Origin: Octopus vulgaris
Lineage: Eukaryota
Assembly: GCA_951406725.2 (NCBI GenBank)
Contig: OX597842.1
Location: forward strand, 29,574,001-29,638,000
Length of the DNA: 64,000 bases
Direction: 5' to 3'
The notes under the pieces were generated by a model that was given only the letters and a program-made list of their open reading frames with translations, was not told where the DNA came from and did no database searches. Below, piece after piece: positions 7,425-50,208 of this stretch. A program made the translations under genes and the position numbers. Each line of letters begins with the position of its first letter. Within the stretch, counting starts at the first letter, position 1.

Positions 7425-7433
<9 letters not shown>

Positions 7434-12260: not shown

Positions 12261-12344
12261 ATGGATGTAAATAAGATTATAAGCAACATTCTGGGTGGGG
12301 ACTTTGAAGATGTCAAACAACTTATCAAAGAAAATCCTGAAACA
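12261..12344 (+). CDS. Coding exon 1 (MDVNKIISNILGGDFEDVKQLIKENPET), N-terminal capping ankyrin-like helix pair
   Basis: Pyrimidine tract and AG at 12257-12258, ATG at 12261, donor GTAAGT at 12345; GDFEDVKQLI resembles ankyrin helix 2. Confidence 0.65.
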
Positions 12345-15300: not shown

Positions 15301-15655
15301 CACACAAACACACACGCACACATATATATATATACATATATACGACGAGCTTCTTTCAGTTTCCGTCTACCAAATCCACTCATAAGGCTTTGGTCGGCCT
15401 GAGGTTATAGTAGAAGACACTTGCCCAAGGTGCCACGCAGTGGGACTGAACCTGGAACCATGTGGCTGGTAAGCAAGCTACTTATCAAACAGCCACTCCT
15501 GCGCCTATGGAAAAAAAAATATGGCGAACGGAGGTGGGGAGACGACTCGGAAATTCAAATCTCACCACTTCCCCATTCGTCGGCGATCCTATGACCGCGA
15601 GTCCACTGCCCTAACCACTGGGCCATTGCGCCTCCACTCTATATCTATATATATC

Positions 15656-15729
<74 letters not shown>

Positions 15730-15999
15730 TATTTAAAATAATAATAATAATAATAATAAATATTAGGGAATAAATCCAAATTTACAGGGAAAAATCAGAC
15801 TTAGGATTGAATCCAATTTTATAGTAAAATATTATATTATATTAAATTAGAGACAAAACCACTATTAGACAAATCAAACAAAGAAAGACTTAAGCCAATA
15901 CATAAAATAATTTATATAAATTAAAATTTAACAATTATAATAATAATAATAATAAGTCTTTCTTTGTTTTGATTTGCATAATAGTGGATTTGTCTCTAA

Positions 16000-16052
<53 letters not shown>

Positions 16053-18358
16053 AATATATGATAAATAAGGGTGTGTTTATATATTCATTTATGTGTGTTA
16101 TATGACCGCCATACTTCCTTGTTGGTCACTGTTTCTTTTGGCGGTAAAAATACGTCTCGTTGCCCTTAACAACAAACTTTCTCTTGCATAGTCTGTTGCT
16201 ATGACAACATTACATTTGCAGACGTAGTTTTCCCGCCAATTACGACGTGCTGTTGTTGTTGTTGTTTTTTTAGATTGATGAGAAATCTGCTATCAATTAG
16301 TTTGTCTATAATTTTCAGACATTCCATCTTTCGCAAAAGGATTACAATACATTTTTCAATGTATACCAAATATGTAGATACTAACAACGGTACTTAATCC
16401 TTGTTTTGTATTGTACACTCGCTGGGATAAAAATATTTATACTTTATACCCTCACCTATTAATATGTGTATACACACACACGTACACATTTGTTTACTGT
16501 GTATTAACGATTATACGTATTTCAGTGGCTCATATTACTCTGTCTGTCTTTCTCTCTATATACATACATATATATATACATACACATACATGCATATATA
16601 TATATATAAATATATATATACATACACATATACACCTATATAATATTATTGACTTTGACATTTCAACTAGCGAAATATACATACATATATGTATGTATGT
16701 GGGTGTATATATGTATGTATATATATATATATAGGCATACTTACACAACTGGGCCCCCACGACGAATTTGTTTCCTTATAACTTTTAGACAGATGGATAT
16801 CTTTTGATGAAATTTCTATGACAAAAATGCTTCAGATGATGAAGATTCCAATTATATTGGAATTTGTTGTGAAAACAAATTTTCAAACGTTGAGAAGTTG
16901 ACTTAAATCCTTATAGAAACTTTCAGAAAAATGGATATTTTGTTTGTGTGAAAATTTCTACAAATCCCTTTCAAATGGATTAGATTAGGATTATATCGGA
17001 ATTTAACATGAAAAAACGTTAAATATTTGGTGGATACACACACATATATACTGACACACATCACGGTTATTTTTCCAAAGTTCATCTTTTCAGTTTCTGA
17101 TGTGTATCAGTGTATATCTCTGCGAATCCACCAAGTTTTTAAATTTTTCTTCATATTAAATTCCGATATAAGTGGAATCTTCACCATCTGAAACGGTTTT
17201 ATTGAAAATTTCATTAGAAAATATTTATTTTTTTGGAAAGAAAGCCGACTCGGGCGAACTTTCCCAAATTTCTCTCTGCACCCACTAAAAATTTTTTCTC
17301 ACAATAAATTCCAATATAATTGGAATCTTCGCCTTCTGAAGCATATTTTTGAAAGAAATTTCATTAAAAAATATCCATTTTTCTAGAAGTTACAGGGAAA
17401 CAAATTCGTCGGGGGAGCACACTTGTGTAGTTATGTCTATACAGGCATGCACGCACACAGACATATATATATATATATACACACGCGGCTGTAATATATA
17501 TATATAGGTTTTTATGCGTTTAATTGAACACGAGTGTATATTTAATGTAATTGTTAAGTGAATGTCTGTGATGTTTTATGTTTTTTCTTCCTTTCAGCCG
17601 TAAAATTGATGCTGTGGCCTCCTTAGTTTCCAGGGGAGCAAATGTTAATAAGCAGGACTCATGGGGCAACACACCTCTACATTGGGCTGTGTGGAACAAC
17701 TATGAAGATGTAGTCAAAGTCCTGTTAAGTAGCAAAGGAAATAACACTTTACAGGTTAGCGAATACAATTATATTTGTGTATATAGATATGTATATATAT
17801 GTATGTGTGTGTTATATGTATATGATGTATACATACAGTTTAGTGCCCCAAATTTCGTTTCTTCATAACTGATGATCCATATTATTTTAAATAAAACTTG
17901 CTGCAAGACTTCCTTTTCTACCCCACAAAAAAACTCACCCTTTCTTTAAATTTTTTTCCCCGACACAAATCCCGCTTTTCGGTTAAGGGAAATACGAATC
18001 TGCAAAAAAATTGGCAAAAATCGGCATTTTTAAATTACCCCCACCCCCATTTCCTTCATTCTTTACTTTTTTCACAATTTTTTTTTTTCAGAATTTGCGG
18101 AAAAATACGGAGATGATGATTCGGACAAAAATTTCAAAACATTTCTGTAGTTGGGGTTGGGGAAAAAAAGTCAAAGTTGAAGAATTTTGGAGGGGGTGGA
18201 AATTCCACTGCCGATTTTTTGGCAATTTTCCCGAACCTCCGAGTCCGAAATCGGGGTGTTTTGGCAAAAAAATTCTTTGAATAAGCAAATTTAGGTGAAA
18301 ATGGTGGTGGTGGTGGTGGGGGGACTCTTTTGAAAGTTGCTCATTTCCTTGTGTGAGA

Positions 18359-18395
<37 letters not shown>

Positions 18396-18401
18396 AGAGT
18401 G

Positions 18402-18432
<31 letters not shown>

Positions 18433-20913
18433 ATATATATATGTGTGTGTGTCTGTGGGTACAGGTATATGAACCTCATTTATTTACTCCTCTCCAAATT
18501 CATTCCACCTGTTTATTAATCTGATTCTTTCTCTTTTTTTGAAATTTTTCATTTTTGCGATGCCCCCCCCCCCATCCACTTGACGCCATCTTTAATGTCT
18601 TTATTGTTTATCTTTTTTAGGTCACTCAGCGAAATAATAAAGGTTGGACACCTCTCCATCTTGCCTCGTATTATGGACACACAGACACAGCTAAACTTCT
18701 CCTACAACAAGATGGCGCTGATGTGAGGGTGGTGGACAACGCTGGTTGGACACCTCTACATCATGCCTCGTATAATGGACACACAGACACAGCTAAACTT
18801 CTCCTACAACAAGATGGCACTGATGTGAGGGTGGTGGACAACGCTGGTTGGACACCTCTACATCATGCCTCGTATAATGGACACACAGACACAGCTAAAC
18901 TTCTCCTACAACAAGATGGCACTGATGTGAGGGTGGTGGACAACGCTGGTTGGACACCTCTACATCATGCCTCGTATAATGGACACACAGACACAGCTAA
19001 ACTTCTCCTACAACAAGATGGCACTGATGTGAGGGTGGTGACCAAATATGGTTCGACACCTCTCCATCTTGCCTGTCAGAATGGACACACAGACACAGCT
19101 AAACTTCTCCTACAACAAGATGGCACTGATGTGAGGGTGGTGACCAAATATGGTTGGACACCTCTACATCTTGCCTGTCAGAATGGACACACAGACACAG
19201 CTAAACTTCTCCTACAACAAGATGGCACTGATGTGAGGGTGGTGACCAAATATGGTTCGACACCTCTCCATCTTGCCTCACGTAATGGACACACAGACAC
19301 AGCTAAACTTCTCCTACAACAAGATGGCACTGATGTGAGGGTGGTGACCAAAGCTGGTTGGACACCTCTCCATCTTGCCTCTAATCAAGGACACACAGAC
19401 ACAGCTAAACTTCTCCTACAACAAATGGCACTGATGTGAGGGTGGTGACCAACGATGGTTGCACACCTCTCCATCTTGCCTGTCAGAATGGACACACAGA
19501 CACAGCTAAACTTCTCCTACAACAAAATGGCATCGATGCCAATAAAGTGGACAATGATGGTGACACTCCTCTCCATCTGGCAGTTCAAAAGTAAGTCCCC
19601 AATGGATTTGGATTATCCAAATCTGTTTCTTTAATGTTTTCAATAACGTTTGTTTTCTTGTTTTGAGTCATTCATGTCATAATCCCACCATGGGACGTCG
19701 TGCTTCAACTCTCTCTCTCACACTCTAATGACACTGTAACCTACTTCATTAATTAATCATCATAATTATTATTGTTGCTGTTGTTACCTGACTAGATTCT
19801 TTACTTCATCTCATCCTTCGTTACCTCAACGTTACAAGTTCAAATCTTTCCTTTTCTTCTTTTCATTCCATATAAAACACCTCACCCCCTCTCTCTTGTA
19901 ATTTTCCTCTTTCCTCTGACCCTGGGCTAAATACAGAATCATTCCCTTACAGTGTTTAGTTTGATCTGTTTATGTTCCAAGTTCAAATCCTGCCAGAGTA
20001 TTTATTAACAACCTGGAGTGAAAATCTGTACCAGTAATATCCAGGGGTTCATTTAATAAATTGTCCTCCCTCTTTTGTCTTGTTTTTGTGTCTGATTGCT
20101 GTTGGGCAAAATACCTTGTGGTATTTATTTACCACACTTTATGTTCAGAGTTCAAATCCTGCTGAGGTCACCTTGTCCTTCCATCTTTGCTAGGCTAATA
20201 AAATACAATACCAGTCATGTACTGGGGTCCTTATAATCCACATTAATGCCTCTCCCCATCCTAAATTTCATGGCTATATAACAGTTGTTCATCATACCAT
20301 ATATAGATTGCCGTGTTTACTCAGGTGTGTATATATATCGTTGATCTATAATGTAGAGAGTATATCGAATATACGAGGGGGTACCCAAAAGTGGCCGGAA
20401 ACGCTTCTGTAGGGCAAGGCCATTGAAGTTCAGGCTTCTGCTGCTGGAAGCCACTTGATGCGATACTCAGGCATCAGCCTACCAAGCGGCATCTTTGAGG
20501 ATGGTGCTGTTACCATGTGGTGCATCTTTGTTTTGTAGGGCTTCTCCCCTGTTCGAGTTTTGCAATGGCTGAAATGAAGGATCAGCTTGCTTCCATGAAA
20601 TTCTGTTTTCTGCTGGAGAAAACTGCAGCCAAAACAGTTGTCATGCTTCAAACAGTTTACGAGGACACTGCCATGATGCCACGAGCAAAACACAAGATCA
20701 CGAGTGGTTTTCATGCTTTTCAAATGGTCACTTGTCACTTGAGGTCCAACCTCATTCAGGGCAGTTCCAGCACTGCTACAAATAGTGGGAAACATGTCTG
20801 GGTCGATGCATTGCTTCAAATGGGGACTACTTTGACGGTGATAATAGTGTTAATACGTAAAACTAAGCAAAGAAAATAATATTGCAAAATTCTGGGTCCT
20901 TCTTGGTCCCCAC

Positions 20914-20954
<41 letters not shown>

Positions 20955-21574
20955 GGGTAAAATCATAAATGATTTTTACCAAGTGGTCAGCGCGGAAATA
21001 TAACCTCACAGGTAAATTTTTATAAACATTTTATAATTATATACATAATTATAACAAGGGCTTGGCTTGCTCCTCACCACGCACTGAAAAATAGACGTCA
21101 AAAGACACTATTACCACCATTAATTCCGAGGAAAACACAGTACGTGTGTTATAATCTTTATATATAAAAGTCAAGTTGTGTGTCTGTCTCCTACCCTTTA
21201 GATTCCTAACTACTCCCACATTTTGCGGTGCAGTGTAATCAAAAGTGGGTATCTTATAGTCGTGATTCATATTGAGCCGTTCTGGGTATTAGCGCGCGTC
21301 GATGATGAGTCTACGATTTAAAAAAAAATTTACCATCATTTTTTTCGATTTTAATGCATTTTTTTCGCTATTATATAAGGGAAGTAACTCTCTAAAAATG
21401 TCTACGATGAGTCAATGGTTTTTAAAAAATTTACCATTATTTTTTTTCCATTTTTAATGCATTTTTGCTATTTTTTGGCTATAACTCTCTAAAAATGCTT
21501 ATATAGTTATTTCCCTTACAAACCCGAGCAATGCCGGGCGATACTGCTAGTTATGTATATAAGTATAAAATGTT

Positions 21575-21609
<35 letters not shown>

Positions 21610-21911
21610 ATGTAGGATCCAAGGATTGAGATATAGGAAGGTGAGCTTCAAACAATCCATAGAAAATGTAAGAAACAACTTTTAGGAACAAAAGGGGTTT
21701 ATTGGGGTGCAAGGTTGTTGGTTTTTCCCTTACTGCATCTTCTGTGTTTGAACATGTGCCTCCTATTGACAGTGTAAACTTCATTTAATCAAGACACCCT
21801 TGGTCTGAAGAGTAGCCTGTGGTATACACCTCGTTTGGATATTTACCAGTTCTGATGTTCCACCTGCTTTGAAACATATGTAGCCCAGATTTTATCTACT
21901 CCATTCCTTAA

Positions 21912-21966
<55 letters not shown>

Positions 21967-24798
21967 GTATAATGTATATTTGTGTGCATGTAATTATTGA
22001 TGTAATTAGGTTATAATGACCTAATTACATTTGTTTTCATTGGTTAATCTAATAATAATAATTGTTTTTCCTCTCCTCTTTGTATAACTTTCAGGCAACA
22101 CTATGGTGTGGTATCGTTGATGCTGGCCCAGGTTAGTTAACAAATACATATTATATCCTCGCTCTAGTATTCAATATTTATATTATCAAAATACCAGTGA
22201 AATTCTGGGGGTAGATTTAATCAACTGCACTGCAGCAGCCTTTAATTAGCAGAATCTTGGGTCTGTGAAGAATAATTATGTTGGTAATAACAATGATGAT
22301 AGTAGTCGTGGTGATGACAGTCCAACTGACCACCACTGCTGATAGTACTATCTTTAATGGTCAGACAAACAAGATCATTATGAATTCGACCCATATATAT
22401 CAGATTATATATATCATCATCAACCACTCTGCCATATGCCCGTGGGCATATGGCATAGTGGTTAATAGTACGGGCTACTAACCCCAAGATTCCGAGTTCA
22501 GTTACAGGCCGTGACTTGAATAATAATAATAATAATAATATTCATAATAATAATACCATTGAAAAATACCTTTGAATGAGAACATAGGTTCGAAATTTCC
22601 TCAAGACACCTGACAAAGGCTGGAGGGTATATCAGCCGAAACATTGTGTTAACAACAAACAAGATGAGGACAAATATCCATCAAATGTAAATAATGTAAA
22701 TAATGATGATGATCATCTTTTAATGTCTGTCTCTCATGTTGTGTGTGTGTGTGTGTTATGTGTAAATTGTTGGTGTCTGCATTTTATCTTGTGTCCAATA
22801 ATTTATTTGGCTTCTTGGCTGCTTTTTTCCCTCTGCACATATGTAAAAATGTGTGTGTATATATGTATATATATATATATATGTATACCCAGAAAGAGAG
22901 TTACTCTTGTCAGACACATTGCACACTCAGATTATGCAGCAGAGATAAGTTAAAGGTCCTTGTCCCCAGCAACAAAGCTAAATGAGGGCATGCTGCAATC
23001 AGTCCCTATTGCTTCGTTAATCCATTATCATCAGTACATGATGCATCAACTTCCCTTCTCTTCTCTCCCTGCCTAACTCAACGGATTAACTACCCTTACT
23101 GTATTTGTCTACCTAACTTATTTACCTGTATTTGTATTAACATGGCTTTGCATGAATGCCGGGATGCAACACCCTCCACTGTTGGTGGTGACAAAACCTG
23201 ATTAACTCCTCTTTATAGGTATCCATACTAACACCTCTGTGCTAATGCCAGCACAACACCCACGTCCAGTGGTGTTAGCAAGCGTTACATGAATGATGCA
23301 GGATTAAATACAATGACATGCTGGCAGGAAAATGCTAATAACAACCTTTTCAGATGCTGATAGCTGCAGCCAATGTAGACAGCACTGTCGATGTAAGCAC
23401 ATGCAACAAGTATCTCGTCTTATGCGCGCCTCCCCCAAAACTGCCCCTACAAGGTCTGTCAAATGAACTGAAGGGCTGCTTCTATGACACTCTTCTGCTG
23501 GCCACTTCAAAGTTAAATGACCGTGACCTTCGTGGCTGGTGATTTCAATGGACGTGTTGGGCGGCACCCAGGTATCTTCCATGGGGTACATGGTGGGACA
23601 CAGAATTGTGGGAACAAAACCATAGCCACTATGTACCCCATGGAAGCCCCCTGCATGTTGTTCAACGTGCCCATTGAAATCGCCAGCCACAAAGAGAAGG
23701 TCCCTGTCATTCATTGACGAGGTAGTCTGCAAGAGGGTGTCATAAAATCAGTCTTTCTCTTCATCAGGTAGCCCTGGCTGAGGGTCATAAGCCAAGATAA
23801 TGGTTGCTAATCCTTGTTGCAGCACTAATCTAAACTTAAGTATTCTATCACAGACTCTGACTATCTCGATTACCTTATCAGCCCATTTCTCTGACTCCAT
23901 CAGTGTCCCCTACCCAGAAAATCTTATACTTATGTTCTTTGCCTGTGAAGAACCTAGCAGAACTTCTTCTCCACCTTGGATGCAGCACAAATCTACACGT
24001 CTCTTTTCAAGCATGTTAACAATCTCACCAGACCTACCTTTCAGTGTGCCGACGTTGAGAGTACTAACCCTGAGGGTGTTGAAGGTATGGGTCCATGAGA
24101 CCCTGGGATGGGGGACAGCGGCATCATGTACCTGAAAAGAAAGCTTGCATTTGGCAGAACCCATAAACATACAATAGTCTTAAACCTGCAAACACTACAC
24201 CATCATTTTATGCACTACATCATCACTACATTACATAGGAGATAAACCCTATATATATAAATATATGTATTTTTTAATAATATATTATTATTATTAATAT
24301 AAGTAAATCAATATGGAATTTTTCACAAAGATATACCCATTTGAAACACCATTTTACAATTTTAATTCAAATTTTTATATAAAAATATCATTCCATACAT
24401 TATTCAATATTCATATTTTATATCTCTGAAGAGGAGAAGGGTTGTCTATAAGTGCTTATCAACATAGGACTTTATTATAGGGTCAACCCTTTTGCGAAAT
24501 GATCGTAAGATGCTTAAAACTTAATTCAAAACTTTTAAACTTTCAAATTTATTTTATACATCATATTTATATTTTTTAATATTTATTTATTTATTTATAT
24601 ACATTTTTAATACATAAAGTCTTTCATATGGGTATATCTTTGTGAAAAATTCGATATTGATTTCCTTATATTAATAATAATAATATATTATTAAAAAATA
24701 TATGTATATATCGCTCATATTAAATATATAAATACTTTAATAGTATTAATATTATTTTATACAATGGAACACTTAATAAAAATTCAGTATATAATATT

Positions 24799-24837
<39 letters not shown>

Positions 24838-27800
24838 TGTATCACCAATTATTATGACACAATACTGTTTACACTATAACCTTGTAGTAACAATAAAACA
24901 TATTACGGATCAGGGTAACAACAACAATCCATACACAAACCAACAAACAATGAAAACAACACCTTACGACTTCCTGCAATTAACACCTACTCTCTCTGGT
25001 CTCTCACTCAGACTGCTACTATTCATAGTCGTTCAGTCAAGTCTGTTCTTGCATGGGTTCTTGTGACTCTCGCCACAACATGTAATCGAGTCCAGGACTT
25101 ATTCTTTATAAGCCTAGTACTTATTCTGTTGATCCTTTTTGCCAAATCGCTAGCTTACAGGGATGTAAACACACCAGCATCGATTGTTAAGCAATGTTGG
25201 GAGGACAAACACAGACACACAGACACACACATATACGATGGGCTTCTTTCAGTTTTTGTCTACCAAATCCACTCACAAGGCTTTGGCCATCCCGAGATGA
25301 TAGTACAAGACACTTGCTCAAGGTGCTATGCAGTGGGACTGAACCCGGAATCATGTAGTTGGTAAGCAAGCTATTTACCATAGCCACTCCTGTATGTATA
25401 TATATATGTGTAAATATATCTATATATATATATATATGTTTGTGTGTATCTCACTTCCATAACATTCATGTATATGTGTGTGTATGTACAGGAATGTTAA
25501 GGATGTGGACACTAACCAACTCACCTGTTTTATGAACCCCTTATTAATATAGCAACATCATAATTCTTCTTTACTAGTTTTGATCTGCTAATTATATGTT
25601 CACTCTTGTTCTGCTCCCCTAAAATTTACTATAGTGAGAGATAAATATAGATTAGGATGAAACAATCTGTTTAAGACCTCTTAATAGATTAATCATGTCC
25701 CTTACACATATCCCATGTACATTTTCAATTTCTATTTTTACTTCCACAAAGGATTCAGTGAAACTGGATATTGGGAATCATATGAAAATAACACCATTGA
25801 TGGAAGCCGTGTCCAGGGCCCACCTCGGAATAATCCATAAACTTATTATACATGGTGCAAACATAAATGCTGTCGACAATGATGGCAATAATTGTTTGCA
25901 CCTCTCAATAATAAAGAAAGAGATGTTCCATTCTGAGGTGGAACCCATTCCCATTTTAGATGAGGTAAGTTTTTAAAATTGTTTGTGAATATGTGTGTGT
26001 GGTTGGCATTAGGAAGGGCATGCAACCGCAGAGACTATGCCAAAACTGGCAATTGGTGCCTGAGCAGCTCTGCAGCTGCCCAGCTTCTGCCAAACTATCC
26101 AACCCATGCCAGCATAGAAAACGAATGTAAAATGATGATGAGGAGGATGTGTGTATGTGTGAGTGAGAGAAAGAGAGAAACAGGCAGACATTGTTTGCTA
26201 TTTTCTTTCACTCCCATCCACTTCTCTTCCTTTAGTATTAAATAATTCAGTTTCTCCTGATAGCACTAGTTGTATTATGTAACTAACAATATTCCATCTT
26301 CTTTCACCTTCAAAAGCATGGCCACTCCACTGTAAAGAAGGTAACCCGTCTTAATTATGTGTCATGTAAACACTGCCATCACTGTATGAAGGAGAGGTGA
26401 CCAACGACAGAGATAAGTCTTTAAATTTAAGAAAGAGAAATTCACAAACTGTTTTAAATATCGAACTTGAAGTTAAACGAGTTGAACTGTGTTAATTGCT
26501 AGAAAGCATATTTCATTATTCTTTTTCAAAGAAAGGAAAAGGAAAATAAATTCGTTTTAAGGACAATTAAATTTAAAGAAAATATATTCATGGACTTCGA
26601 AGAAAGTTTCTTTTATCAGTATGATAATGAATATATAACTGAGATTATTCAAAGTTGATAATTAGGGTTCCAAATATTGCCAGAGCTTGGACTTTATGTC
26701 TATATTGACTACAGTAATACCCCTTGCAATGATTGTAATGAAGGGAGATGTGATGAGAATGAATTTACATTAAGATGTGTGCACAAAATTGTAATGCCAC
26801 GAGATTGTATGTATGACGATGTAACTAGACAGATAGTCATAGAGGCCCTTTGTTACCAACAAAGATAGAAGCTCTCTGAACTTTGCCCTGCTTAATCTTA
26901 TTCTAGCAACTATGCTCTTGGCGCATCCACCTCCACTACTGACTTGATTACCTAGATAACAGTAGCTATCAACTACTTCTAGGTGCATATATATATATGT
27001 GTGGGGGTGCGTGTGTTTGTTTGTTTGTTTGAAAGACCTCAGCATCTATCCACTGCTAGATCTGATGGTGTTTATTGTCTGTTGTTGCAGAATTTAAGCA
27101 ACTCTTTGATTCCCAAATATGTAACGGTCACTACAGATGTGTGACTGTATTTCAGACAGTTGATGGTCACCTATGTATTGTTGTAATGTCTTCTTTGGTG
27201 AGAAGAAGCTACTCGAGAAGTCAACGACCCATTATTATAGGTATTGTCTATGAGACTAACAGTTTCAACAATTTCTTGACTATAATGTGTTGGTGTGTTG
27301 CCTCAACCACCACACCAATCTTTACTTCACTTCATCAGCCAAAAATGTTTCTTTATAAATTTTGGAAACATTATTGATATGCTTGGATATGTCTGTCTGG
27401 TGTTGGTTTTGTTGCTGTGTCTGAAGAAATTATTATGTTCTTGGTGTTCTCTGTTCATCGTTTGTTGTTATGGAAATGAGTTGCACTTTGTGACCAGTGA
27501 AACGTTTCCCAATCAATATTTGGATTATCGAAATTACCAGTAGGAAAATATGGGTGACTGCTTTCATAGATGCAGATCTGAAGATGTCAAAAATCTGAGT
27601 TTTGATGGCAGTTTTGCAGATGGTAAACAAATTCAAGTAGGAGTATATATGTTGTTAAAAAAATACTTCTTGTTGCGACCAGTTAAAATCTCCACAAGGA
27701 ATTACAGAAAATCTTGAGTGACCATAGACCATCAGACGACCCCCATGGTAATTAGAATGGCCTTTGTGTAACAAAATGTAGCTTGCCATTGTTTGTTGTT

Positions 27801-30800
27801 ATGTTGTTGTGTTATATTTATATATACAATACTCTTCCATAAGTATTTCTTTTGTTATGGCCAGTTGGCTTTATCAAGCCTGTTGTAAAGATAGGTTCTT
27901 GTTGGTTTGTTGCGTTCTGTTATTTGTGATACTTATTCCATTATATTTCCTACATTTGACATGATTTGTTTATCTACAATATATATTTGTGTAATATTCT
28001 ACTGATCGTTTTATATTTCATCATTTGCAGTGCTGCAGAGAGCTCCAACTGGACATGGATAGGAGGCTCTCTGGAATAGTAGTTTTGAGTTACCTTGCCA
28101 GCCAAGGAGCCAGCTTATACCATCATAATAATAAGAAAGTGACTCCATTGGACTACATAGAAAATCAACATTTGAAAGAAAAATTAAAAACATTTTTACA
28201 ATCACTGTAAGTATTCACTGGCAACGACAAGATAAACCAGGACATTTTCTCTTTTGTATATAATCATGTTTATATGTTTATTTAGTTTGAATTCTCCCAA
28301 TGTATTATTCCGTCATTAGTGTCTTGACTCAAGACAACAATAATGATTTCCAATTCTGGCACAAGGCCAGCAAGGTCAGGGAGGGGATAAGTCAATTACA
28401 ACAGCCCCAGTTTTCAACTGGTACTTATTTTATCAACAGCAAGGTAGAGTCAACCACAGCTGAATTTGAACTCAGCATGTAAAAGCAGACGAAATGCCAG
28501 AAAGCATTTTGCTCCGTGTGCTAATGATTCTGCCAGCTTGCAGCCTTAAGACCACACAACAATAATAAGAACAATAAACAGAAAATACAGTTGTTAGTGG
28601 ATCAAACGAAAAACACGATTTTGATGACATTCACATGATTGCTTGTGTTGACAGATATACCTCACCATCCACCCCTGACTATTTTAGAGTTTGGTGACCT
28701 CCATGAAAATGTAGTACTAAATAATAAAGTGAATGAACACATTTTGAAATTGCTATTTAGAAGTAAATAGGATTTATCTGTCTACCAACAATTTTTTTCT
28801 CTCTCTCTTCTCTGACTCAATCAGTTGTCATGTACGCTTTCATGTGAAAATAACCTAAAACACACACTAACAATGTGTATGTCATCATCATCATCATCAT
28901 CATCATTTAACGTCTGTTGTCCATACTGGCATGGATTGGACTGTTTGACTGGGATGGCATGTTGGAAGGTTGCACCTTAGTCAGCCTTTGATATTTTCAG
29001 CCCACCCTTGTATGTGTATGTTAATGTATACACACAAATCTGCTTGTATGTAATTGTTTACAGAAGAATTTACGATGTACTCTTGCTGGTTACTGTTGTG
29101 CCCCTTAATATTCTGTACTCTAAACATGTCCACAACGAAATATTTTATTATAAATGAATGTTAATGATGGGATGTGTTAATATTTTGTTCCACAGGTGTT
29201 GGTTTTGTCAAGAGAAAAAGGCTACTGTCACACTCCATCCATGTCAACATACTGTTATTTGTCAGAATTGCTGTTCTCAAATGACATTTAAGCAATGCCC
29301 CATATGTCGACAACACATACTCCGGAAAAGTGGATTTGGTAAGAACATTCTTTCTTGATCTGTCTGTTGTCTCATTAACTTTCTGGTATGGAATAATGCA
29401 TTTCATATTGTAGTGGAGACATGCAACTCCTTGTTTGTAACTATATATTATTAACACTTGTTATAATGTTTGCCATCCTTTTAGACATTTTATACTCACA
29501 CTCGTTAGTTTTTAGATGTGATTAATGCTAAAAGAGACATTGTTTTCTGACTCTTTCACCTTTTGGCTTTACTTTTGAGTTGATTCGTTTTAATTCAAAC
29601 ATGAAGCCTGGTCATTGCTCCAAGGTGGTATCAGAAAGTTCACGGACTAGTTCTGTAGCATGCCAACAGATGGCAGCACACCGTTGCGTGCACAGTGAGA
29701 GCTAGCAATGACTTTCATGAGGCGGTGTACTGGGTGACACCACTGCGTTTACTTCAAAAGTTGTGAAATTTGTGCTTTTGTGGTCATTTGTAGGCTGTAG
29801 TCTGCAATTTTCTAATGGGCAGGAACAAATAACCAATGTGAAATTTTGCGTTAAACTTGTCCAGCAAAGACATAAGAAAGAAACAACAAAACTAAGAGAA
29901 AAAGAGTGTTATGAAGTGATAACTAAGTGAGAGAATTTCAGAATTGTTAGATTAGTATATAGGATGTCTTAAGAGAAAGATGAGATTTAGAAAGGTTTGC
30001 CTATTTTGTTGTGGTTCTAAATATTGAACTATTATATAGTAACAGCTTAGAAAGTGTTGACCGAAAGCATAGTGGTCACCAATTGACTATTGATGATATG
30101 AATGCCTTACAAAAATGGAATATAGATTATTAAAAGAGACAAAGAAATTTTACTATGAAGTATAAAACTTTGAAATGCTTATTTCAGTGTGTCCAAAGTT
30201 TGAAGAGAAAGCAGTCCAGGCGGTTGTAGAGTCTGTTGGTAAGTATAAAATAACTGTAATTGATTTCTATAAATTTTACCTTCACCTGAAATATATTATT
30301 TGTGTGAATGACTGTGAACAGGTTCCATTCTTAATTTCCAATTCTTATTTCAGTGTGTCCAAAGTCTGAAGAGAAAGCAGTCCAGGCAGTTGTAGAGTCT
30401 GTTGGTAAGTATAAAATAACTGTAATTGATTTCTATAAATTTTACCTTCACCTGAAATTTATTATTTGTGTGAATGACTGAGAACAGGTTCCATTCTTAA
30501 TTTCCAATTCTTATTTCAGTGTGTCCAAAGTCTGAAGAGAAAGCGGTCCAGACGGTTGCAGAATCTTTTGGTGAGTATAAAATAACTGTTACTGATTTCT
30601 ATAAATTTTACCTTCACCTGAAATATATTATTTGTGTGAATGACTGAGAACAGGTTCCATTCTTAATTTCCAATTCTTATTTCAGTGTGTCCAAAGTCTG
30701 AAGAGAAAGCGGTCCAGACGGTTGCAGAATCTTTTGGTGAGTATAAAATAACTGTTACTGATTTCTATAAATTTTACCTTCACCTGAAATATATTATTTG

Positions 30801-33800
30801 TGTGAATGACTGAGAACAGGTTCCATTCTTAATTTCCAATTCTTATTTCAGTGTGTCCAAAGTCTGAAGAGAAAGCGGTCCAGACGGTTGCAGAATCTTT
30901 TGGTGAGTATAAAATAACTGTTACTGATTTCTATAAATTTTACCTTCACCTGAAAGATATTATTTGTGTGAATGACTGAGAACAGGTTCCATTCTTAATT
31001 TCCAATTCTTATTTCAGTGTGTCCAAAGTCTGAAGAGAAAGCGGTCCAGACGGTTGCAGAATCTTTTGGTGAGTATAAAATAACTGTAACTGATTTCTAT
31101 AAATTTTACCTTCACCTGAAATATATTATTTGTGTGAATGACTGAGAACAAGTTCCATTCTTACATTTCTTTCAAATGGATAGCGATAAAAGTAATTCTA
31201 TTCACTACCTACAAATGCAAGAATATACAATAAAGGGATTTTTATCGAAATATGGAATCATGAGACATAGGAAAAAGGTCCCTCACGATAAGGAAAATAT
31301 AGAAAAAAAGATAAAATATAAATCCTGCAGCGATTCTCTCCCCATAATGAGACACATTCACTTTTCTCTCATCTCATTGTTTTCTATATCACCACCTTGA
31401 TTATATATTCTTGAATATCATTTCTTATATACCATTTCAGATATTTTTCCTTTGCAACAATTGGTGTATGAACATTTGTGTTTCATTTAAGATGTTTTGT
31501 GCAAGTATACAGTTTTAGGATACTTGTTATCACTTTCTGTTTTACCTGTGTAGAACTAATCATTGCTCATCAGGAAAGGAAACTATTTCATTAAGGAGTC
31601 TTTAGATATTTCCTGAATCAGATGAAATTCTGGTGAACTGTGAGTTGCATAGTTTAAAATTAAAGATTAAAAGCAGCAACGTTTGACAAAGATAACAGGT
31701 GTGACATGAGTTTGTGTCAAGGTCGTTGATGACCAGCTTGGTTGACATCAGAATTAAGCAAAAGAAGAGGGGAATGTTGATTAGTGAAGTCCAGTGGTGA
31801 GGGGACAATGCCATGTCATTGGTTTAGCATGGATATAAGAGAGAAGAAAGATAAAAGGTGTTAACATGTGATCATTAAATAAGATGATTGCAACATTGTT
31901 AGATTAAGTAGGCTGTCTTAATAGAAAAAGGAGGCTTAGGAAGGTCAGTCTATTTTATTATGGGCCTAAATATTGAGCCATTATATAGGACCACGGTAGA
32001 AAGTATAAAACTATCAACCAAACCTTTAGTGGTCAGCAGTTGTCCATTGATGATAGGAATGTCTTACAATAATAAAATATAAACCATTAACAGAGATCGG
32101 GAAATTGTGCTATGAAGTGTAAAATTTGGAAATATTTATTTCAGATTCTGTAATGGTAGAGGAGAAGCATCTTCATTGGGTGTCCAGAAGCTTGGCAGGT
32201 AAATGGCAGGAACTTGGTGAGTATAAAATACCCAATTAATTTCTATAAATTTTGCTTTCAGCTAAGCTTTTGTTTGTTTGAATGACTGAGAACCGGTTCC
32301 ATTCCTAATTTCCAATTGAAAGTTTAGCTATAAAGTAAAGCTATCACTGAAATTTCATAAAATATCTACGGACGTCAGCACGGTTGTAAAATGAATAAAT
32401 TAGAAGGTCCAGTAGAGTTAATACTATCGTTTGTAAAAGGGGACTCGAAAATATTGTCATTTAAGAGTAAACAGGTGAATTAATGACAATGTTTTTGCTT
32501 GTTTACACTTTTAGTAATTTTACTGGTAGGTTGAGGCAGATATCTCCCTTAATCTGGCAGAATTAAGGGGAAAGGGTTCCAGATGTGCCATCATGTTTTC
32601 TCTTGGGTGAAGAGGACCACATTATCAAGTGTAACCTTTTTAAAATGAGAGTGTGCATTGTGTGGGACATGTTGTCATCTCTCCCCTGGCCAGTCTGTTT
32701 TTCTATATTTATTGTAATTCTTTAGTCCCAGGTCAACATATATTTCCTGTCTCTATAGAAGACAGGCCCCATTGTCGATTGTGTTCATGGCTGGATTGAA
32801 CTCAGCATTGTAAGTTAATGAAACACTCATTTATATTAGAAAAAAAGAATCTCAACAGAAAATTCAAACTCAACTCAATTTTGTTCTCAATTGAAATCAT
32901 TTCACTCTCCTTTACATTACAAATGTCACATGGAAAGGCATGAACATCACAATATCCCATTTCCCCTTGTCTGACAGTTTAACAACATAAAATATCATTT
33001 ATACTATTATTTACAGCAATGCCCCTCTTATTTACAGCAATGTCTTCTACCTCCCTATGGTACCTATATACATCTAGATAGACTGCAGCATAGAGAAATG
33101 TCTTTACAAGTACTTTTGAGCTATACTGGGGACTAGACTTGACTCAAGAGATCATGATAATATCCCCTGAGTCAGCTGATATAAATCATCATCATCATCA
33201 TTTGACATCCATTTTCCATGCTGGTATGAGTTGGATGGTTTGACTGAAGTCTGGAGAGCCAATGGCTGCACCAGGCTCCAATCTGATCTGGCAGTGTTTC
33301 TACAGCTGGATGCCCTTCTTAGTGCCAAACGCTCCGAGTGAGTAGTGGGTGCTTTTTATGTGCCGCCAGCATGGAAGTCAGTCAGGTGGTCCTGGCATCA
33401 GTCATGTTTGGATGGTCCTTTTTACGTGCCACCAGCACATGGAGTCAGTCAGATCACACTGGCATTCACCACATTCAGATGATGGCTTTCATGTGCCACC
33501 AGAACGGGGGCTAGTCAGGGGGCACTGGCCACAGCTGCAATTTTGGTTTTACTTGACTCAACAGGTCTTCTCAAGCATATCATATCACCCAATGCATCGA
33601 GGGTGCTCTTAAATGGGCCGGACATGCAACACTGGCATTGGCCATGGCTACGATCTCATTTTAGTTGCCGGGTTTTCTCAATCACAGCATATTTCTCAAA
33701 TCTTGGTCTCCTGTCATTGCCCCTGTGAGGCCCAATGTTCGAAGGCCATGCTTCATCATCTCATCCCATGTCTTCCTGGATATACCTCTTCCACAGGTTC

Positions 33801-35969
33801 CTTCTACAGTTAGGAAGTGGCACTTCTTCACACAGTTGTCCTCATCCATACGTAACACATGACCATACCAGCGTAGTCATCTCTCTTGCACACCATGTTT
33901 AATGCTTCTCATGTCCAACATGTCCTCAGCAGTCATGGCCCATGTTTCACTGCCATGTAGCATGGAAGTTCGCACTCAGAAATGATTTATCTAAATTAAG
34001 AAAGGACATCATCTACAACATTGCCAGCTTGCTATATGTCTGGGAGTCATACAAGATGTACCAGTCATATACTGGGCAAAAATCAATCCACTAACACCAG
34101 GTCCATTATCATCATCCCCTTACATCCATTTTTCTAAGTTTGTAATGGTCAGACGACTTTTCCCAGAGTCGTTGTGGTCCTTTGTCAGGTTTGATTGCTT
34201 GTTTCCTTCAACTTGATTTCCAGGCATTTCTTTATCCAAATTTCATCCTCCATGTCCCTTCTATATCTATACCATTATCTTTTTTCTTGTACACTATCAC
34301 AGATTTTTCAACACATTAACATTACACATTTAGTGATGTGTGCTCATCTCATTTCCTGCCAGTTTCCATGCATCCTCCACATTCCATGTAACATTGCAAT
34401 TTCTCCTTCATTTGGAAACAGAATCCCTTAGTTGCCAGTAGACCTAACAGCTCCCTGTACATTTTTCATCTCATTTTCCTTCTAACTACTGTGCTTTCAG
34501 AATAGTCTCCTCCACTTCTAATTCTGTCTCTTAGGTCACAGAAACTATCAACTATGACTTTATTACTTGTACCTACTACAAACTTATCCTGTATATCTGC
34601 TACTTACAAAGTCCTTCCCTAACCTTAACCGGCCTTTCCTGTAAACTTGCTTGTTTGTGGATGCAGTAATTCTTTCAGGACCCAAGTGTTGTAGGTGTAT
34701 GGCGTAGATGTTGGTGATTCTTGTCTTATTGCCTACAAACTAAAACTCTTCTCATTGCTAAGGCCTCTCCTGTATTAAATACTTTGAAATTGTGGCCTTG
34801 ATCTAGTGAAAGAAGTTCTTGTTATAAGTCATGAATCCAAAAACCTTAAGCCAGTGCCCTCTATAATATGTGATATTTACCTAACAGTATTTTATTTTTA
34901 CTTTCTGTGGTTGAAATCATTTAGGTTCACAATCCCCATTTTTGAAATATTTTTAAATGTTGATAATTTTGAAATTTCTATTAATCATAGGTGGAAAGAC
35001 ATCACAAATGACTATTTCAGGCATTGATCACAGGGTGTTATCAAACGACTGCGATTGTATTCCTCCAAAGAGTCTCTGGAGTAACGTTACTCAACAAGGT
35101 GTGCAGGCTGGAGATTTGGGGTCTCTCCAGGTCAAGCGACTGCTTCTCTGCATTGAGAATTCACAGCTCCAGTACTCCTGGCATGTGATTAAAATGTCAT
35201 AGAAAAGAACCATAAGAGGGATTCTTCAAGCTGAGCCAACCGACAGGAGACCTAGGGGTAGAGCAAGAATGAGATGGTTGGATGATATCCATAGTTTCAA
35301 TTGGTCATGTTTGGAAATCTTTTCAGAACTTCTAATGAAGGTTGCTTCTGATAGAATTGCATGAAGGAGGTGCCTGAAGACTCTACCCCTAAAACTCTCC
35401 TATGAATAGAGCCCAGAGAAGATGGACAGATGGATAAAATTATCTAACTATTGGTGGTCTTTGTTGATTCTTTAGGCTCTCATACACTTCTTCTGCCAGT
35501 TGTTCACCAGGCATTTTCTCTTGTGTAATTTTCAATTAATTTTTTTTAAATATTCTTCTTCTTCTCCAGCCTTTTTTTCAAATTCTTTGCTATTTTTATC
35601 AACATCTTTAGAAATAGATAACAATGTCTTCTAATTTCCCTGTTTCTTAAGTATCTCTCACTCTTCTATTCACATAATTTCTTAGTCGTAATTAATACAG
35701 GTTTTATATTATCATTAATGCTGTTGCAATTATTTCTTATTTCTTTTGCAGGAAGGGAATTAGGAATTAAACAACATGACCTGGACATCATCAAGCTTGA
35801 CCATTCTCATAGCGTTAGGGAACAAAGTTTCCAGATGCTTCTGACATGGTTTCAAAGTTGTGATCCGGCAAAACGTACACTTCAAATATTAAAAGAAGCT
35901 CTTGAAAGAACTGAATGTTTTATTGCAATTGAATGTTTATCATCAGAATTCAATCGAATTTCTTTGTAA
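12261..35969 (+). CDS. Multi-exon gene encoding ankyrin repeats (with a hypervariable tandem array), C3HC4 RING, 6 mini-exon repeats and a death domain; Mind-bomb-like ANK-RING module; two 1-nt frameshifts as assembled
   Basis: 16 exons joined at GT-AG sites with matching phases: 12261-12344, 13946-14096, 17598-17754, 18621-19590, 22095-22131, 25752-25964, 28031-28206, 29196-29338, six 51-nt exons in 30188-31068, 32145-32216, 35752-35969. Total 2529 nt (842 aa plus stop) if one nt is restored at ~13970 and one at ~19424. Confidence 0.85.
12500..12745 (-). mobile_element. LINE RT fragment
   Basis: VALDIGKTFNCVWQ and INSGIP, decayed LD.SKAFD.VWH and SGVPQG motifs. Confidence 0.7.
13946..14096 (+). 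CDS. Exon 2, ankyrin repeats (VNQIDSDRK/TFLMAACEQGSTSLIAFLIESGANMDMSDKAGLTALHYAVI), with a -1 frameshift
   Basis: TTCAG acceptor and AG|GTAAGG donor; clear ankyrin motifs; reading through needs A5 where A4 is present (13969-13972). Confidence 0.8.
15105..15505 (-). mobile_element. tRNA-derived SINE family A, full length; other copies at 10217-10309(+), 25085-25391(-), 48472-48830(+), 51267-51400(+), 51643-52002(+), 54797-55203(-)
   Basis: Shared head GGCGCAGGAGTGGCTGTGTGGTAAG...GGTTCAGTCCC (A/B-box-like), internal (TA)/(TG) tract and tail CCAGCATGGCCGCAGTCAAATGACTGAAACAAGTAAAAGAG. Confidence 0.85.
15835..16010. repeat. AT-rich inverted repeat, ~58-bp arms
   Basis: ATTAAATTAGAGACAAAACCACTATT...AAGACTTA versus TAAGTCTT...AATAGTGGATTTGTCTCTAATTTAAT. 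Confidence 0.75.
16734..17437. mobile_element. TA-flanked MITE with long imperfect TIRs
   Basis: GGCATACTTACACAA...CGACGAATTTGTTTCC versus GGAAACAAATTCGTCG...TTGTGTAGTTATGTC. Confidence 0.75.
17598..17754 (+). CDS. Exon 3, ankyrin repeat (RKIDAVASLVSRGANVNKQDSWGNTPLHWAVWNNYEDVVKVLL)
   Basis: TTTCAG acceptor, CAG|GTTAG donor, canonical GANVN..D..G.TPLH motif; phase 2 in, phase 0 out. Confidence 0.9.
18621..19590 (+). CDS. Exon 4, tandem array of ~9.5 34-aa ankyrin repeats
   Basis: TTTTAG acceptor, AA|GTAAGT donor; ORF 18723-19439; ten TPLH motifs at 102-bp spacing; -1 frameshift at 19423-19425. Confidence 0.95.
18633..19590 (+). repeat. Coding tandem repeat, 102-bp unit
   Basis: Units start at 18633, 18735, 18837, 18939, 19041, 19143, 19245, 19347, 19448 and 19550 (partial); units 2-4 identical. 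Confidence 0.95.
20372..20919 (+). mobile_element. Internally deleted mariner element
   Basis: TACGAGGGGGTACCCAAAA left end and CACCTCATA right end; N-terminal MKFCFLLEKTAAKTVVMLQTVYED and C-terminal CIASNGDYFDGD transposase remnants. Confidence 0.8.
21155..21550 (+). mobile_element. Non-autonomous Helitron
   Basis: A|TCTTTATATATAAAAG 5' end; CCCGAGCAATGCCGGG hairpin then CTAG|T 3' end. Confidence 0.8.
22095..22131 (+). CDS. Exon 5, 37 nt (KQHYGVVSLMLAQ), completes the last ankyrin repeat of the array
   Basis: TTTCAG acceptor, CAG|GTTAGT donor; bridges phase 2 of exon 4 to phase 0 of exon 6. Confidence 0.75.
22444..22700 (+). mobile_element. tRNA-derived SINE-like element with a degenerate hammerhead-like 3' part
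   Basis: A box TGGCATAGTGG at 22451, degenerate B box near 22494, (AAT)n, then ACAC-CTGACAAA-GGCTG..CAGCC-GAAACATT-GTGT. Confidence 0.55.
23440..24170 (-). mobile_element. RTE-clade LINE AP-endonuclease fragments (- strand 23620-24170; inverted + strand piece 23440-23600)
   Basis: LRVSTLNVGTLKGRSGEIVNMLEKRRVDLCCIQ; FVAGDFNG motif on both strands. Confidence 0.8.
24265..24702. repeat. AT-rich inverted repeat (~80-90 bp arms) enclosing a hammerhead motif
   Basis: ATTTTTCACAAAGATATACCCAT versus ATGGGTATATCTTTGTGAAAAAT and flanking complementary AT-rich sequence. Confidence 0.8.
24422..24511 (+). ncRNA. Minimal type I hammerhead ribozyme motif, intronic and sense to the gene
   Basis: ATCT-CTGAAGA(24426)-G..AAGGGTTG/CAACCCTT..C-GAAAT-GATC-GTA-AGAT. 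Confidence 0.65.
25752..25964 (+). CDS. Exon 6, ankyrin repeats (ITPLMEAVSRAHLGIIHKLIIHGANINAVDNDGNNCLHL)
   Basis: Within ORF 25695-25976; AAG acceptor, GAG|GTAAGT donor; 213 nt. Confidence 0.9.
28031..28206 (+). CDS. Exon 7, terminal ankyrin resembling Mind bomb (LSYLASQGASLYHHNNKKVTPLDYI)
   Basis: TTGCAG acceptor, CT|GTAAGT donor; resembles the MIB-type last ankyrin motif FLA..GA.L...N..G..PLD (from recall). Confidence 0.85.
29196..29338 (+). CDS. Exon 8, C3HC4 RING finger (CWFC...PCQH...CQNC...CPICR), MIB/IAP type
   Basis: All 8 zinc ligands present; CACAG acceptor, G|GTAAG donor. Confidence 0.92.
29620..29860 (+). mobile_element. Mariner 5' fragment
   Basis: CAAGGTGGTATCAGAAAGTTC TIR-like start; decayed EQ..NVKFCVKL. 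Confidence 0.5.
30178..31163 (+). repeat. 166-bp tandem repeat, 6 units (exon plus intron)
   Basis: Exon starts spaced exactly 166 bp apart; units 3-6 near-identical. Confidence 0.95.
30188..31068 (+). CDS. Six symmetric (phase 1-1) 51-nt mini-exons: 30188-30238, 30354-30404, 30520-30570, 30686-30736, 30852-30902, 31018-31068
   Basis: Each has an ATTTCAG acceptor and a G|GTAAGT or G|GTGAGT donor; encode VCPKFEEKAVQAVVESV, VCPKSEEKAVQAVVESV and 4x VCPKSEEKAVQTVAESF; 115-nt introns. Confidence 0.75.
32145..32216 (+). CDS. Death-domain exon A (DSVMVEEKHLHWVSRSLAGKWQELG)
   Basis: ATTTCAG acceptor, G|GTGAGT donor, phase 1-1; L..V...L...W..L death-domain helix 1-2 pattern. Confidence 0.8.
33185..33980 (-). 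mobile_element. RTE LINE 3' end fragment; shorter copies at 1981-2230, 14690-14890, 26000-26140 and 28880-28980
   Basis: Decayed HGSETWA and LRWYGHV.RMDE on - strand; shared tail CCAACCCATGCCAGCATGGAAA plus (GAT)n. Confidence 0.75.
35752..35969 (+). CDS. Terminal exon, rest of the death domain (RELGIKQHDLDIIKLDHSHSVREQSFQMLLTWFQ...LKEALER...*)
   Basis: TTGCAG acceptor; LG.....I..I.......EQ..QML..W death-domain signature; TAA ending at 35969. Confidence 0.9.

Positions 35970-50134: not shown

Positions 50135-50208
<74 letters not shown>

Follow-up and report, generated by a model that had tools for sequence, protein, structure and literature searches.

Symmetric mini-exons between the RING and death-domain exons of an Octopus gene family: probable derivation from a death-domain exon and predicted LC8-type motifs

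Why should a gene of Octopus vulgaris carry six short exons in tandem between its RING and death-domain (DD) exons, where did these exons come from, and what might the peptides that they encode do? We addressed these questions for one copy of the gene, contained in a window of 64,000 nucleotides (the whole stretch of DNA analysed), and for its relatives in Octopus genomes.

The array and its host gene

TRF identifies the array at positions 30174-31169 as 6.0 copies of a 166-bp period with 97% matches. Each unit is a 51-nt exon plus the 115-nt intron that separates consecutive mini-exons, and the exons occupy 30188..30238, 30354..30404, 30520..30570, 30686..30736, 30852..30902 and 31018..31068 of the forward strand. 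All six units (6/6) are symmetric cassettes, that is, their lengths are multiples of 3, both ends are in the same phase (1-1) and the splice sites are canonical: the acceptor is TTTCAG in all six, and the donor is GTAAGT in units 1-2 and GTGAGT in units 3-6. Because phase 1 is shared by the end of the RING exon and the start of DD exon A, any subset of mini-exons preserves the frame. Units 1 and 2 are of the AVQA type and differ from each other at 2 exon positions; units 3-6 are of the AVQT type and their exons are identical. In all these respects, namely six tandem exon-plus-intron units, intact AG and GT sites, 17-codon phase 1-1 exons of which any subset stays in frame, and two types in two and four copies, TRF, the exon-by-exon check and the flanking-exon phases bear out an earlier sequence-only reading of this DNA. 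The array is not a chance occurrence, because its unit recurs in 49 of the 61 family stretches examined.

The host gene, on the forward strand throughout, belongs to an ankyrin-RING-death-domain family, likely of ubiquitin ligases. Its upstream exons span 12261..28206 and comprise 12261-12344, 13946-14096, 17598-17754, the ankyrin array exon (18621-19590) and, between the ankyrin array and the RING, 22095-22131, 25752-25964 and 28031-28206. The RING exon, of C3HC4 type (29196..29338; Pfam zf-C3HC4_3, E 3e-11), is joined from the preceding exon in 4/4 runs. Downstream of the array lie the 72-nt, phase 1-1 DD exon A (32145..32216), which covers helix 1 of the domain plus the beginning of helix 2 and can be aligned with the first RIPK1 DD helix, and DD exon B with the stop codon (35752..35969; Pfam Death, E 1.3e-6), which matches a named record of O. 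vulgaris at 100% identity; the joint between the two is present in 4/4 runs. Compared to paralogs, the window copy has two 1-nt deletions (~13968 and ~19422), which are upstream frameshifts in the assembly. Of two family proteins of 563 aa each, P0199 and P0011, both contain Pfam Ank and RING, and P0011 additionally contains Death. Two word-index protein searches (11 and 21 proteins) returned only Octopus records for the ankyrin-RING-linker-DD arrangement, which is weak evidence on its distribution, and a protein atlas search gave no usable match.

Copy number and splicing across the family

DD exon B has 135 matches in a large Octopus family, some of which are decayed copies, and the number of linker units per paralog ranges from 0 to 9. 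This range agrees with the earlier proposal, to be checked by counting copies in paralogs, that the array is tunable by copy number; the proposal of a variable module within the same gene holds insofar as the symmetric exons are real, but the array is family-wide and not peculiar to one gene. Among 144 linker exons in the family, 137 are multiples of 3 without an in-frame stop and 7 are frameshifted; unit lengths span 12 to 26 codons, and the widely recurring exon lengths (36, 51 and 72 nt) are all multiples of 3. Splice sites are retained in nearly all units (GT 144/144, AG 142/144), the GT count being partly circular given that GT-like donors were the criterion of detection. Where the RING is in view (26 loci), 16 loci are without an intact QT exon and 4 without any linker exon, and QT is retained in 50 of the 120 in-frame linker exons of at least 51 nt. 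The most amplified units, both in the window and in the paralogous locus L022, are the QT-bearing ones.

The mini-exons are real spliced exons at the level of the family. Contigs from runs that are RNA by the tool's guess contain joints from RING to mini-exon, from mini-exon to mini-exon and from mini-exon to DD exon A; GT..AG joints of these three kinds come from contigs of 4 studies, and none is listed for the large run X16. The joint from RING to unit 1 was seen in run X5, the unit-to-unit joint involving mini-exon 2 in runs X2, X13 and X5, and the joint from mini-exon 6 to DD exon A in X5, where 41 letters lie on the short side, compared to only 20-29 for most contig joints. The run listing records no run holding the sequence as RNA, and the contigs are not assignable to the window copy, so that the splicing evidence applies to the family. 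Contig C1 also bears intronless decayed copies, in which linker motifs and the DD follow one another without interruption.

The absence of a direct joint from RING to DD exon A among the 15 joints viewed, of 31, carries no weight, and in contigs skipping is indistinguishable from paralogs with fewer units. In RefSeq models, O. sinensis isoforms X1, X2 and X3 contain both units, unit 2 only and unit 1 only, respectively; for another O. sinensis paralog, 15 of 16 inclusion subsets occur among the 21 isoforms seen, and the isoform ladders of paralogs step by 17 aa. Isoforms are models that paralog cross-mapping may inflate, and those for O. sinensis and O. bimaculoides paralogs favour variable inclusion from one locus, which would point to combinatorial skipping. 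Thus, of the alternative splicing proposed earlier, inclusion is seen in RNA-type contigs, and skipping is probable from the models of paralogs. The sequence-only reading had also taken splicing of the RING exon directly to 32145, with no mini-exon included, as refuting the linker module; this is too strict, because one paralog has a RefSeq isoform that omits every linker exon alongside sister isoforms that contain them.

Likeness to death-domain exon A and the LC8-type motif

The upstream intron, unit 1 and the downstream intron (29900..30343, forward strand) form a cassette homologous to 31853-32317, which contains DD exon A (72% identity over 474 columns, E 3e-66). The flank of DD exon A scores 103 and 96 against the 100 nt downstream of units 1 and 6, respectively, vs. 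16-23 in the same comparison for all 7 other exons of the gene. Intermediate linker exons of 72 nt exist in paralogs, and all 10 distinct ones have a mean ungapped identity of 47-55% to 30 DD exon A sequences, compared to 25-27% after shuffling. The mini-exon unit is therefore probably a duplicated form of the cassette around DD exon A. We infer that the direction was from DD exon A to linker exon; in a tree of 100-nt intron flanks, too short to root and not used for the direction, linker and DD exon A cassettes are interleaved. Two other relationships were ruled out: a mini-exon cannot replace DD exon A, as it does not encode the beginning of helix 2 and the RNA joints lead from the unit into exon A, and it does not derive from the RING tail, the flanks being unrelated and the DNA unlike by eye.

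The linker peptide holds an LC8/DYNLL-type motif, K-x-V-Q-T, which in the form K-x-[V/T/S/M]-Q-T is constrained and present in three Octopus species. Among 73 distinct linker peptides, 24 contain [KR]x[VTSIM]QT (shuffles: mean 0.17, maximum 2), figures that overstate significance, as the motif was noticed in the same data before testing and the peptides are related to one another. In 5/73 peptides the Rapali consensus is matched at all 6 of its positions, and in 11/73 at 5-6, vs. at most 2 in 30/30 DD exon A peptides; Lys is found at -3 in 63/73 linker peptides. The sequence DKGVQT, present in three paralogs, also lies within the ITC-validated site of ZFPM1. Motifs occur in 10 of the 16 family proteins scanned, every one inside the linker. 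Isoforms of O. bimaculoides have 4, 3 and 2 motifs. The linker is predicted to be disordered (P0012 residues 182-214, pLDDT <50 and coil; AlphaFold2 with a shallow 20-sequence alignment), and the genome encodes a canonical LC8 of 89 aa (locus L081:1489-1758). Across the genome, matches to a motif pattern are dominated by scattered occurrences of a single recurring sequence, which is probably a dispersed repeat; the pattern was used solely for locating C1 clusters.

LC8 clients prefer a large, often basic residue at -3, a polar one at -4, no internal proline and D, E or P at +2, where hydrophobic residues are disfavoured; according to published work, the anchor by itself is no guarantee of binding. 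All six window units (6/6) conform to the first three of these preferences, with Lys at position -3, Glu at position -4 and no proline within the motif. Units 3-6 carry V-Q-T and conform to the anchor triplet [T/V/I]-Q-[T/V], which units 1-2 miss with V-Q-A, the +1 Thr being replaced by Ala, a residue found there in 0/79 listed LC8 binders. At +2 the window units have Val, as do 1/79 binders vs. 4/32 non-binders, and the K-A-V-Q-T units match 4 of the 6 Rapali positions. By their sequence, the predicted LC8 sites of the window look weak.

Codon-level conservation, calculated from automatic clustering in place of hand-picked representatives that were circular for Q and T, gave -5, -3, 0 and +1 as the four most conserved positions at 4/4 clustering thresholds, and a pN/pS of 0.41 for motif codons vs. 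0.94 elsewhere. In the large cluster that includes the window units, pN/pS is 0.91 over all codons; the anchor is loosely constrained (8.0 at -1, 0.47 at 0 and 0.97 at +1), and Lys -3 and Glu -4 are constrained (0.12 and 0.07).

These values bear on an alternative that we judge unlikely, namely that the motif is ancestral and decaying, and that in the young subfamily the 166-bp unit is a near-neutral minisatellite, tolerated since it preserves the frame. Such decay would account for the identity of the exons of units 3-6, the pN/pS of the large cluster over all codons, the absence of an intact motif from most fully viewed loci, the frameshifts in some units and the two upstream frameshifts of the window copy, but not readily for the retained splice sites (with the reservation on GT donors noted above), recurring lengths that are all multiples of 3, the persistent constraint on Lys -3 and Glu -4 in that same cluster, or the amplification of QT-bearing units in the window and L022. 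It is quite unlikely that, in keeping with the adjustable linker of the sequence-only reading, linker length alone sets the reach of the RING from the DD platform: predicted disorder, RefSeq isoforms that include units both with and without QT, and the range of 12-26 codons are consistent with a pure spacer, which nevertheless leaves unexplained the selective constraint on motif codons vs. the rest, the full consensus matches and the retention in O. bimaculoides. The linker does lie between RING and DD as described there, but it is probably more than a spacer, namely a duplicate of DD exon A with an LC8-type motif. Very improbable is a role of derived C-P-x-C units as extra or replacement zinc ligands of the RING, or in pairs as zinc ribbons: 18 of the 77 51-nt units in the window's subfamily start with CPxC, and both L031 and its equivalent in O. 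sinensis have a RING exon without its last CxxC pair, followed by mini-exons with CPKC, but the second Cys is found in 0/6 window units, and CxxC looks like a later product of point mutation, because older unit types begin with S, N, R, A or T and the DNA of the RING tail is unlike the unit by eye.

A proposed role and known systems

The balance tips slightly in favour of the reading that the mini-exons arose by duplication of DD exon A and serve as LC8 (DYNLL) sites, with copy number and skipping setting valence and tether length. Under this duplication and LC8 reading, frame-preserving linker mini-exons would have been repurposed as predicted LC8 sites, and copy number together with probable exon skipping would determine both the number of sites and the length of the RING-DD tether. 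LC8 binding and its effect are predicted from sequence: LC8 dimers would zip two chains in register, so that their IAP/IDOL-like RINGs and RIPK1-like death domains would come together in pairs, pairing would be stronger in isoforms with more intact sites, and units without the anchor would serve simply as spacers. The window copy would thus present two probably dead sites followed by four weak ones. More tentatively, as an idea that is plausible but short of probable, we suggest that an exon for DD helix 1 became a one-motif-per-exon LC8 cassette, a digital dimerisation dial in which copy number and splicing (up to 2^n isoforms) tune thresholds of DD signalling, probably in immunity. If so, the family would offer a case in which the emergence of a short linear motif out of the exon of a folded domain can be traced, its intermediates being extant in one genome, and a natural series of LC8 valence from zero up, in which one could test how the number and strength of motifs determine the output of multivalent LC8 assemblies.

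Databases mislabel members of this large Octopus ankyrin-RING-death-domain family, which we flag here, as MIB2-like. Mind bomb proteins (MIB1/MIB2) likewise have ankyrin repeats followed by C3HC4 RING, and the MIB1 ankyrin structure is a weak fold match (E 9e-3). MIB1/MIB2 have N-terminal MIB-HERC2/ZZ and MIB-repeat domains, two or three C-terminal RING fingers and no death domain, whereas the octopus proteins are without MIB-HERC2, ZZ and MIB-repeat and have one RING, a linker and a C-terminal death domain; their Pfam content (Ank, RING and Death only) rules out membership in MIB2. The best solved-structure match is the RIPK1 DD (sequence E 9e-6, fold E 5e-4), followed in fold by the RINGs of IDOL, cIAP and XIAP, but unlike RIPK1, TRADD and ankyrin death-domain proteins and IAP/IDOL RING proteins, no kinase, BIR or FERM domain is seen in octopus.

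Multivalent LC8/DYNLL clients such as ASCIZ/ATMIN, Nup159 and KANK1 L2 resemble the octopus linker in that their QT-anchored motifs stand in tandem within a disordered stretch that connects folded domains, and in KANK1 weak LC8 sites can bind cooperatively, with spacing tuning the assembly (PMC10046861, PMC12803091). Unlike in those clients, the octopus motif, for which binding is predicted, occurs once per symmetric, DD-derived exon, and its number differs between paralogs and modelled isoforms. According to work cited in PMC3995210, a small alternatively spliced exon, exon B, also governs LC8 binding in myosin Va, as predicted in octopus; there, a single exon acts as an on/off switch, whereas octopus has a graded array of up to 9 exons in a large gene family.

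The mini-exon array and its host gene

The six 51-nt mini-exons (units 1 to 6) between the RING exon and the first death-domain exon (DD exon A) form an array with a 166 bp period, 6.0 copies and 97% matches. Each has a TTTCAG acceptor and a GT donor, and the intervening introns are 115 nt long, which bears out the six-fold exon-plus-intron unit with AG/GT sites described in the sequence-only reading. On the forward strand, the host gene starts with an ATG at 12261, followed by ankyrin exons, the RING exon (29196-29338, phase 1; Pfam zf-C3HC4_3, E 3e-11), DD exon A (32145-32216, likewise in phase 1) and, last, DD exon B (35752-35969), which matches Pfam Death and whose sequence agrees at 100% identity with a named Octopus vulgaris record. 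Pfam domain content rules out membership of these ankyrin-RING-DD proteins in the Mind bomb family. Compared with its neighbours in the family, this copy lacks one nucleotide at each of two places (~13968 and ~19422), which reflects either assembly errors or a pseudogene. The ankyrin array, previously described as the gene's other variable module, is a single exon (18621-19590) of 9 units at 102-bp spacing (one of 101, a frameshift), with variable residues grouped near the TPLH motif; arrays of 8 and 4 units occur in the nearest paralogs, and one of at least 6 in a paralog on contig C27. Within DD exon A, a phase-1 putative cryptic donor (CAG/GTAAAT, 32199-32204) lies 54 nt in, near the mini-exon length.

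The window also contains a perfect 519-bp inverted repeat (7425-7943 and 8089-8607, spaced by 145 bp), a short interstitial TTAGGG run (9084-9110), a DUF7041 fragment (9530-9997, forward strand), a LINE-type reverse transcriptase fragment (RVT_1; 39236-41302, forward strand), a 269-bp tandem repeat in three copies (49032-49839, with an additional copy near 50204), and a partly frameshifted C2H2 zinc-finger array of 84-bp period (60271-61365, reverse strand).

Linker exons across the family

Unit 1 with its flanks had at least 114 matches in its own genome, a lower bound from 40 scored of 264 candidates, and DD exon B had 135. We catalogued 60 stretches of ~10 kb each, 58 anchored on DD exon B matches (mostly the best-scoring of the 135) and 2 on unit matches; with the window, 49 of 61 stretches contained linker cassettes (a linker exon plus flanking introns), 144 in total, not counting a discarded 7-nt fragment and two exons that lacked a called acceptor. 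Cassette-bearing stretches held 1 to 9 (the one with 8 comprises two arrays), and where the RING was in view (26 loci) there were 0 to 7 linker exons. Of these 144 exons, 137 were in frame and stop-free (36, 51, 54, 57, 72 or 78 nt) and 7 were frameshifted (26, 35, 49, 50, 52, 53 and 53 nt), several of them within stretches of A or AG. The mini-exon array is a real, family-wide feature, and its proposed copy-number variability holds across paralogs of this genome (counts 0-9). At one locus (L080, contig C29 near 30.21 Mb) the entire array is duplicated, ~3.5 kb apart.

GT..AG joints between units were found in contigs of runs X1, X2, X3, X13 and X5, from RING to unit 1 in X5, and from a unit to DD exon A in X1 and X5; these runs, whose RNA status is a guess, come from 4 studies, and the large run X16 had no linker joints among those listed. 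The mini-exons are spliced, as had been predicted, and the evidence is at the level of the family, because paralogs are 90-99% alike, the shorter side of a joint usually spans 20-29 letters (41 in one case), and the joints are those listed, with 90 and 16 more outside the listings. Contig C1 carries tandemly amplified intronless copies of the family mRNA, with linker motifs and DD in one run: stop-riddled ankyrin tail/linker/DD arrays of period ~2-3.6 kb (L090-L096; 102.70-102.74 Mb and 216.93-216.97 Mb), which are amplified processed pseudogenes, a fossil of spliced mRNA. Alternative splicing, also proposed earlier, appears in RefSeq models, which derive from short reads and whose variety cross-mapping could inflate. 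O. sinensis models of 312, 295 and 295 aa contain, respectively, units 1 and 2 together, unit 2 alone and unit 1 alone; of the 16 possible subsets of four linker exons, another O. sinensis gene shows 15, the empty set included (21 isoforms examined); and O. bimaculoides isoforms differ in motif number (4, 3 and 2). Individual loci would accordingly skip exons if the models hold.

Origin from DD exon A and divergence

Positions 29900-30343 align with the DD exon A cassette (31853-32317) at 72% identity over 474 columns. Against the DD exon A flank, downstream introns of units 1 and 6 scored 96-103 in local alignment vs. 16-23 for 7 other exons, so by this comparison the flank homology is specific. 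The 72-nt linker exons of paralogs match DD exon A in length and phase and are on average 47-55% identical to 30 sequences of that exon (25-27% for shuffles); some are decayed DD copies, others motif-bearing. Because DD exon A aligns with helix 1 of the RIPK1 death domain, it is probably the older element, and we infer the direction from DD exon to linker exon. Duplications of DD exon A recur, as a decayed second 72-nt copy precedes the real one in L057, L060, L069, L071-L073, L077 and O. bimaculoides protein record P0009; such a copy is also present in RefSeq isoforms. DD exon A is 5 codons shorter, through an alternative acceptor, in some of the O. sinensis isoforms (XP_036355684 and its sisters), and is called at 57 nt in L032 and L034.

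Between linker and DD exon A cassettes, exons diverged more (36-58% identity) than downstream introns (64-83%), as in distant DD exon A pairs (0.61 vs. 0.73; shuffled flanks 0.53). Together with a pN/pS of 2.75 in close DD exon A pairs (61 non-independent pairs), this pattern suggests that the protein evolves fast, in the manner of immune genes.

An LC8-type motif in the linker

Aligned in register, the linker units read [D/E]-K-x-[V/S/T/M]-Q-T, near the LC8 consensus [D/S]-K-x-[T/V/I]-Q-[T/V]-[D/E] (PMC3078936; LC8 motifs are also treated in PMC6607443). Among 73 distinct linker peptides, 5 match six of six consensus positions and 6 more match five; window units 3-6 match four and units 1-2 three, and all 30 DD exon A peptides match at most two. 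DKGVQT (L043, L055, L078) also occurs in the validated ZFPM1 site, and the BMF, gephyrin and syntaphilin sites are close. [KR]x[VTSIM]QT was present in 24 of the 73 peptides vs. a shuffle mean of 0.17, a contrast that overstates significance because the motif was spotted before the test. The motif is constrained: counted from Q as 0, positions -5, -3, 0 and +1 were most conserved in automatic clustering (4 of 4 thresholds, -3 always first), and pN/pS was 0.41 at the five motif codons vs. 0.94 at the other eleven, in one random draw of representatives with non-independent pairs. The linker is disordered by prediction, and the genome encodes canonical LC8.

The RING fold is closest to those of IDOL, cIAP and XIAP, which act as dimers, and the nearest match of the DD is RIPK1. 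LC8 joins its clients into duplexes (PMC12057147) and binds bivalent peptides 80- to over 500-fold tighter (PMC3078936). On these grounds, the most likely mechanism, which we favour with moderate confidence, is that LC8 dimers would hold two chains together in register along their linkers; pairing strength and geometry would then depend on how many intact sites there are, and anchor-less units would act as spacers. The fuller reading, in which octopus death-domain ligases have an LC8 dial that was born from an exon and is tuned by splicing, is tentative.

Several observations count against LC8 binding: 16 of the 26 loci viewed in full lack an intact motif, QT is kept in 50 of 120 in-frame exons, and the QT anchor is under loose constraint in the cluster to which the window's units belong. 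Window units carry Val at +2, which is disfavoured (1 of 79 LC8 binders vs. 4 of 32 non-binders), and units 1-2 carry Ala at +1 (0 of 79 binders). Even weak LC8 sites can bind in a cooperative way, which has been reported for KANK1 (PMC12803091). That the motif is a decaying relic in the window's subfamily is unlikely. Rather less probable is that the linker is a pure spacer. A zinc-knuckle role of CPxC units is improbable. At L031:1852-3433 (C29 near 21.23 Mb), and likewise in isoforms of O. sinensis XP_036355683, the final CxxC pair is missing from the RING exon while CPKC is present in both of the mini-exons that follow, so the RING might be completed or broken by splicing.

We found no account of this octopus family, nor of exon-per-motif LC8 arrays, in the open-licence literature, as judged from search listings; that symmetric exons can encode disordered modules is already known as a general theme (PMC3632108). 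If LC8 binds as predicted, the octopus linker would resemble multivalent LC8 clients (PMC10046861) in its working, and also myosin Va, whose LC8 site is controlled by splicing (work cited by title in PMC3995210).
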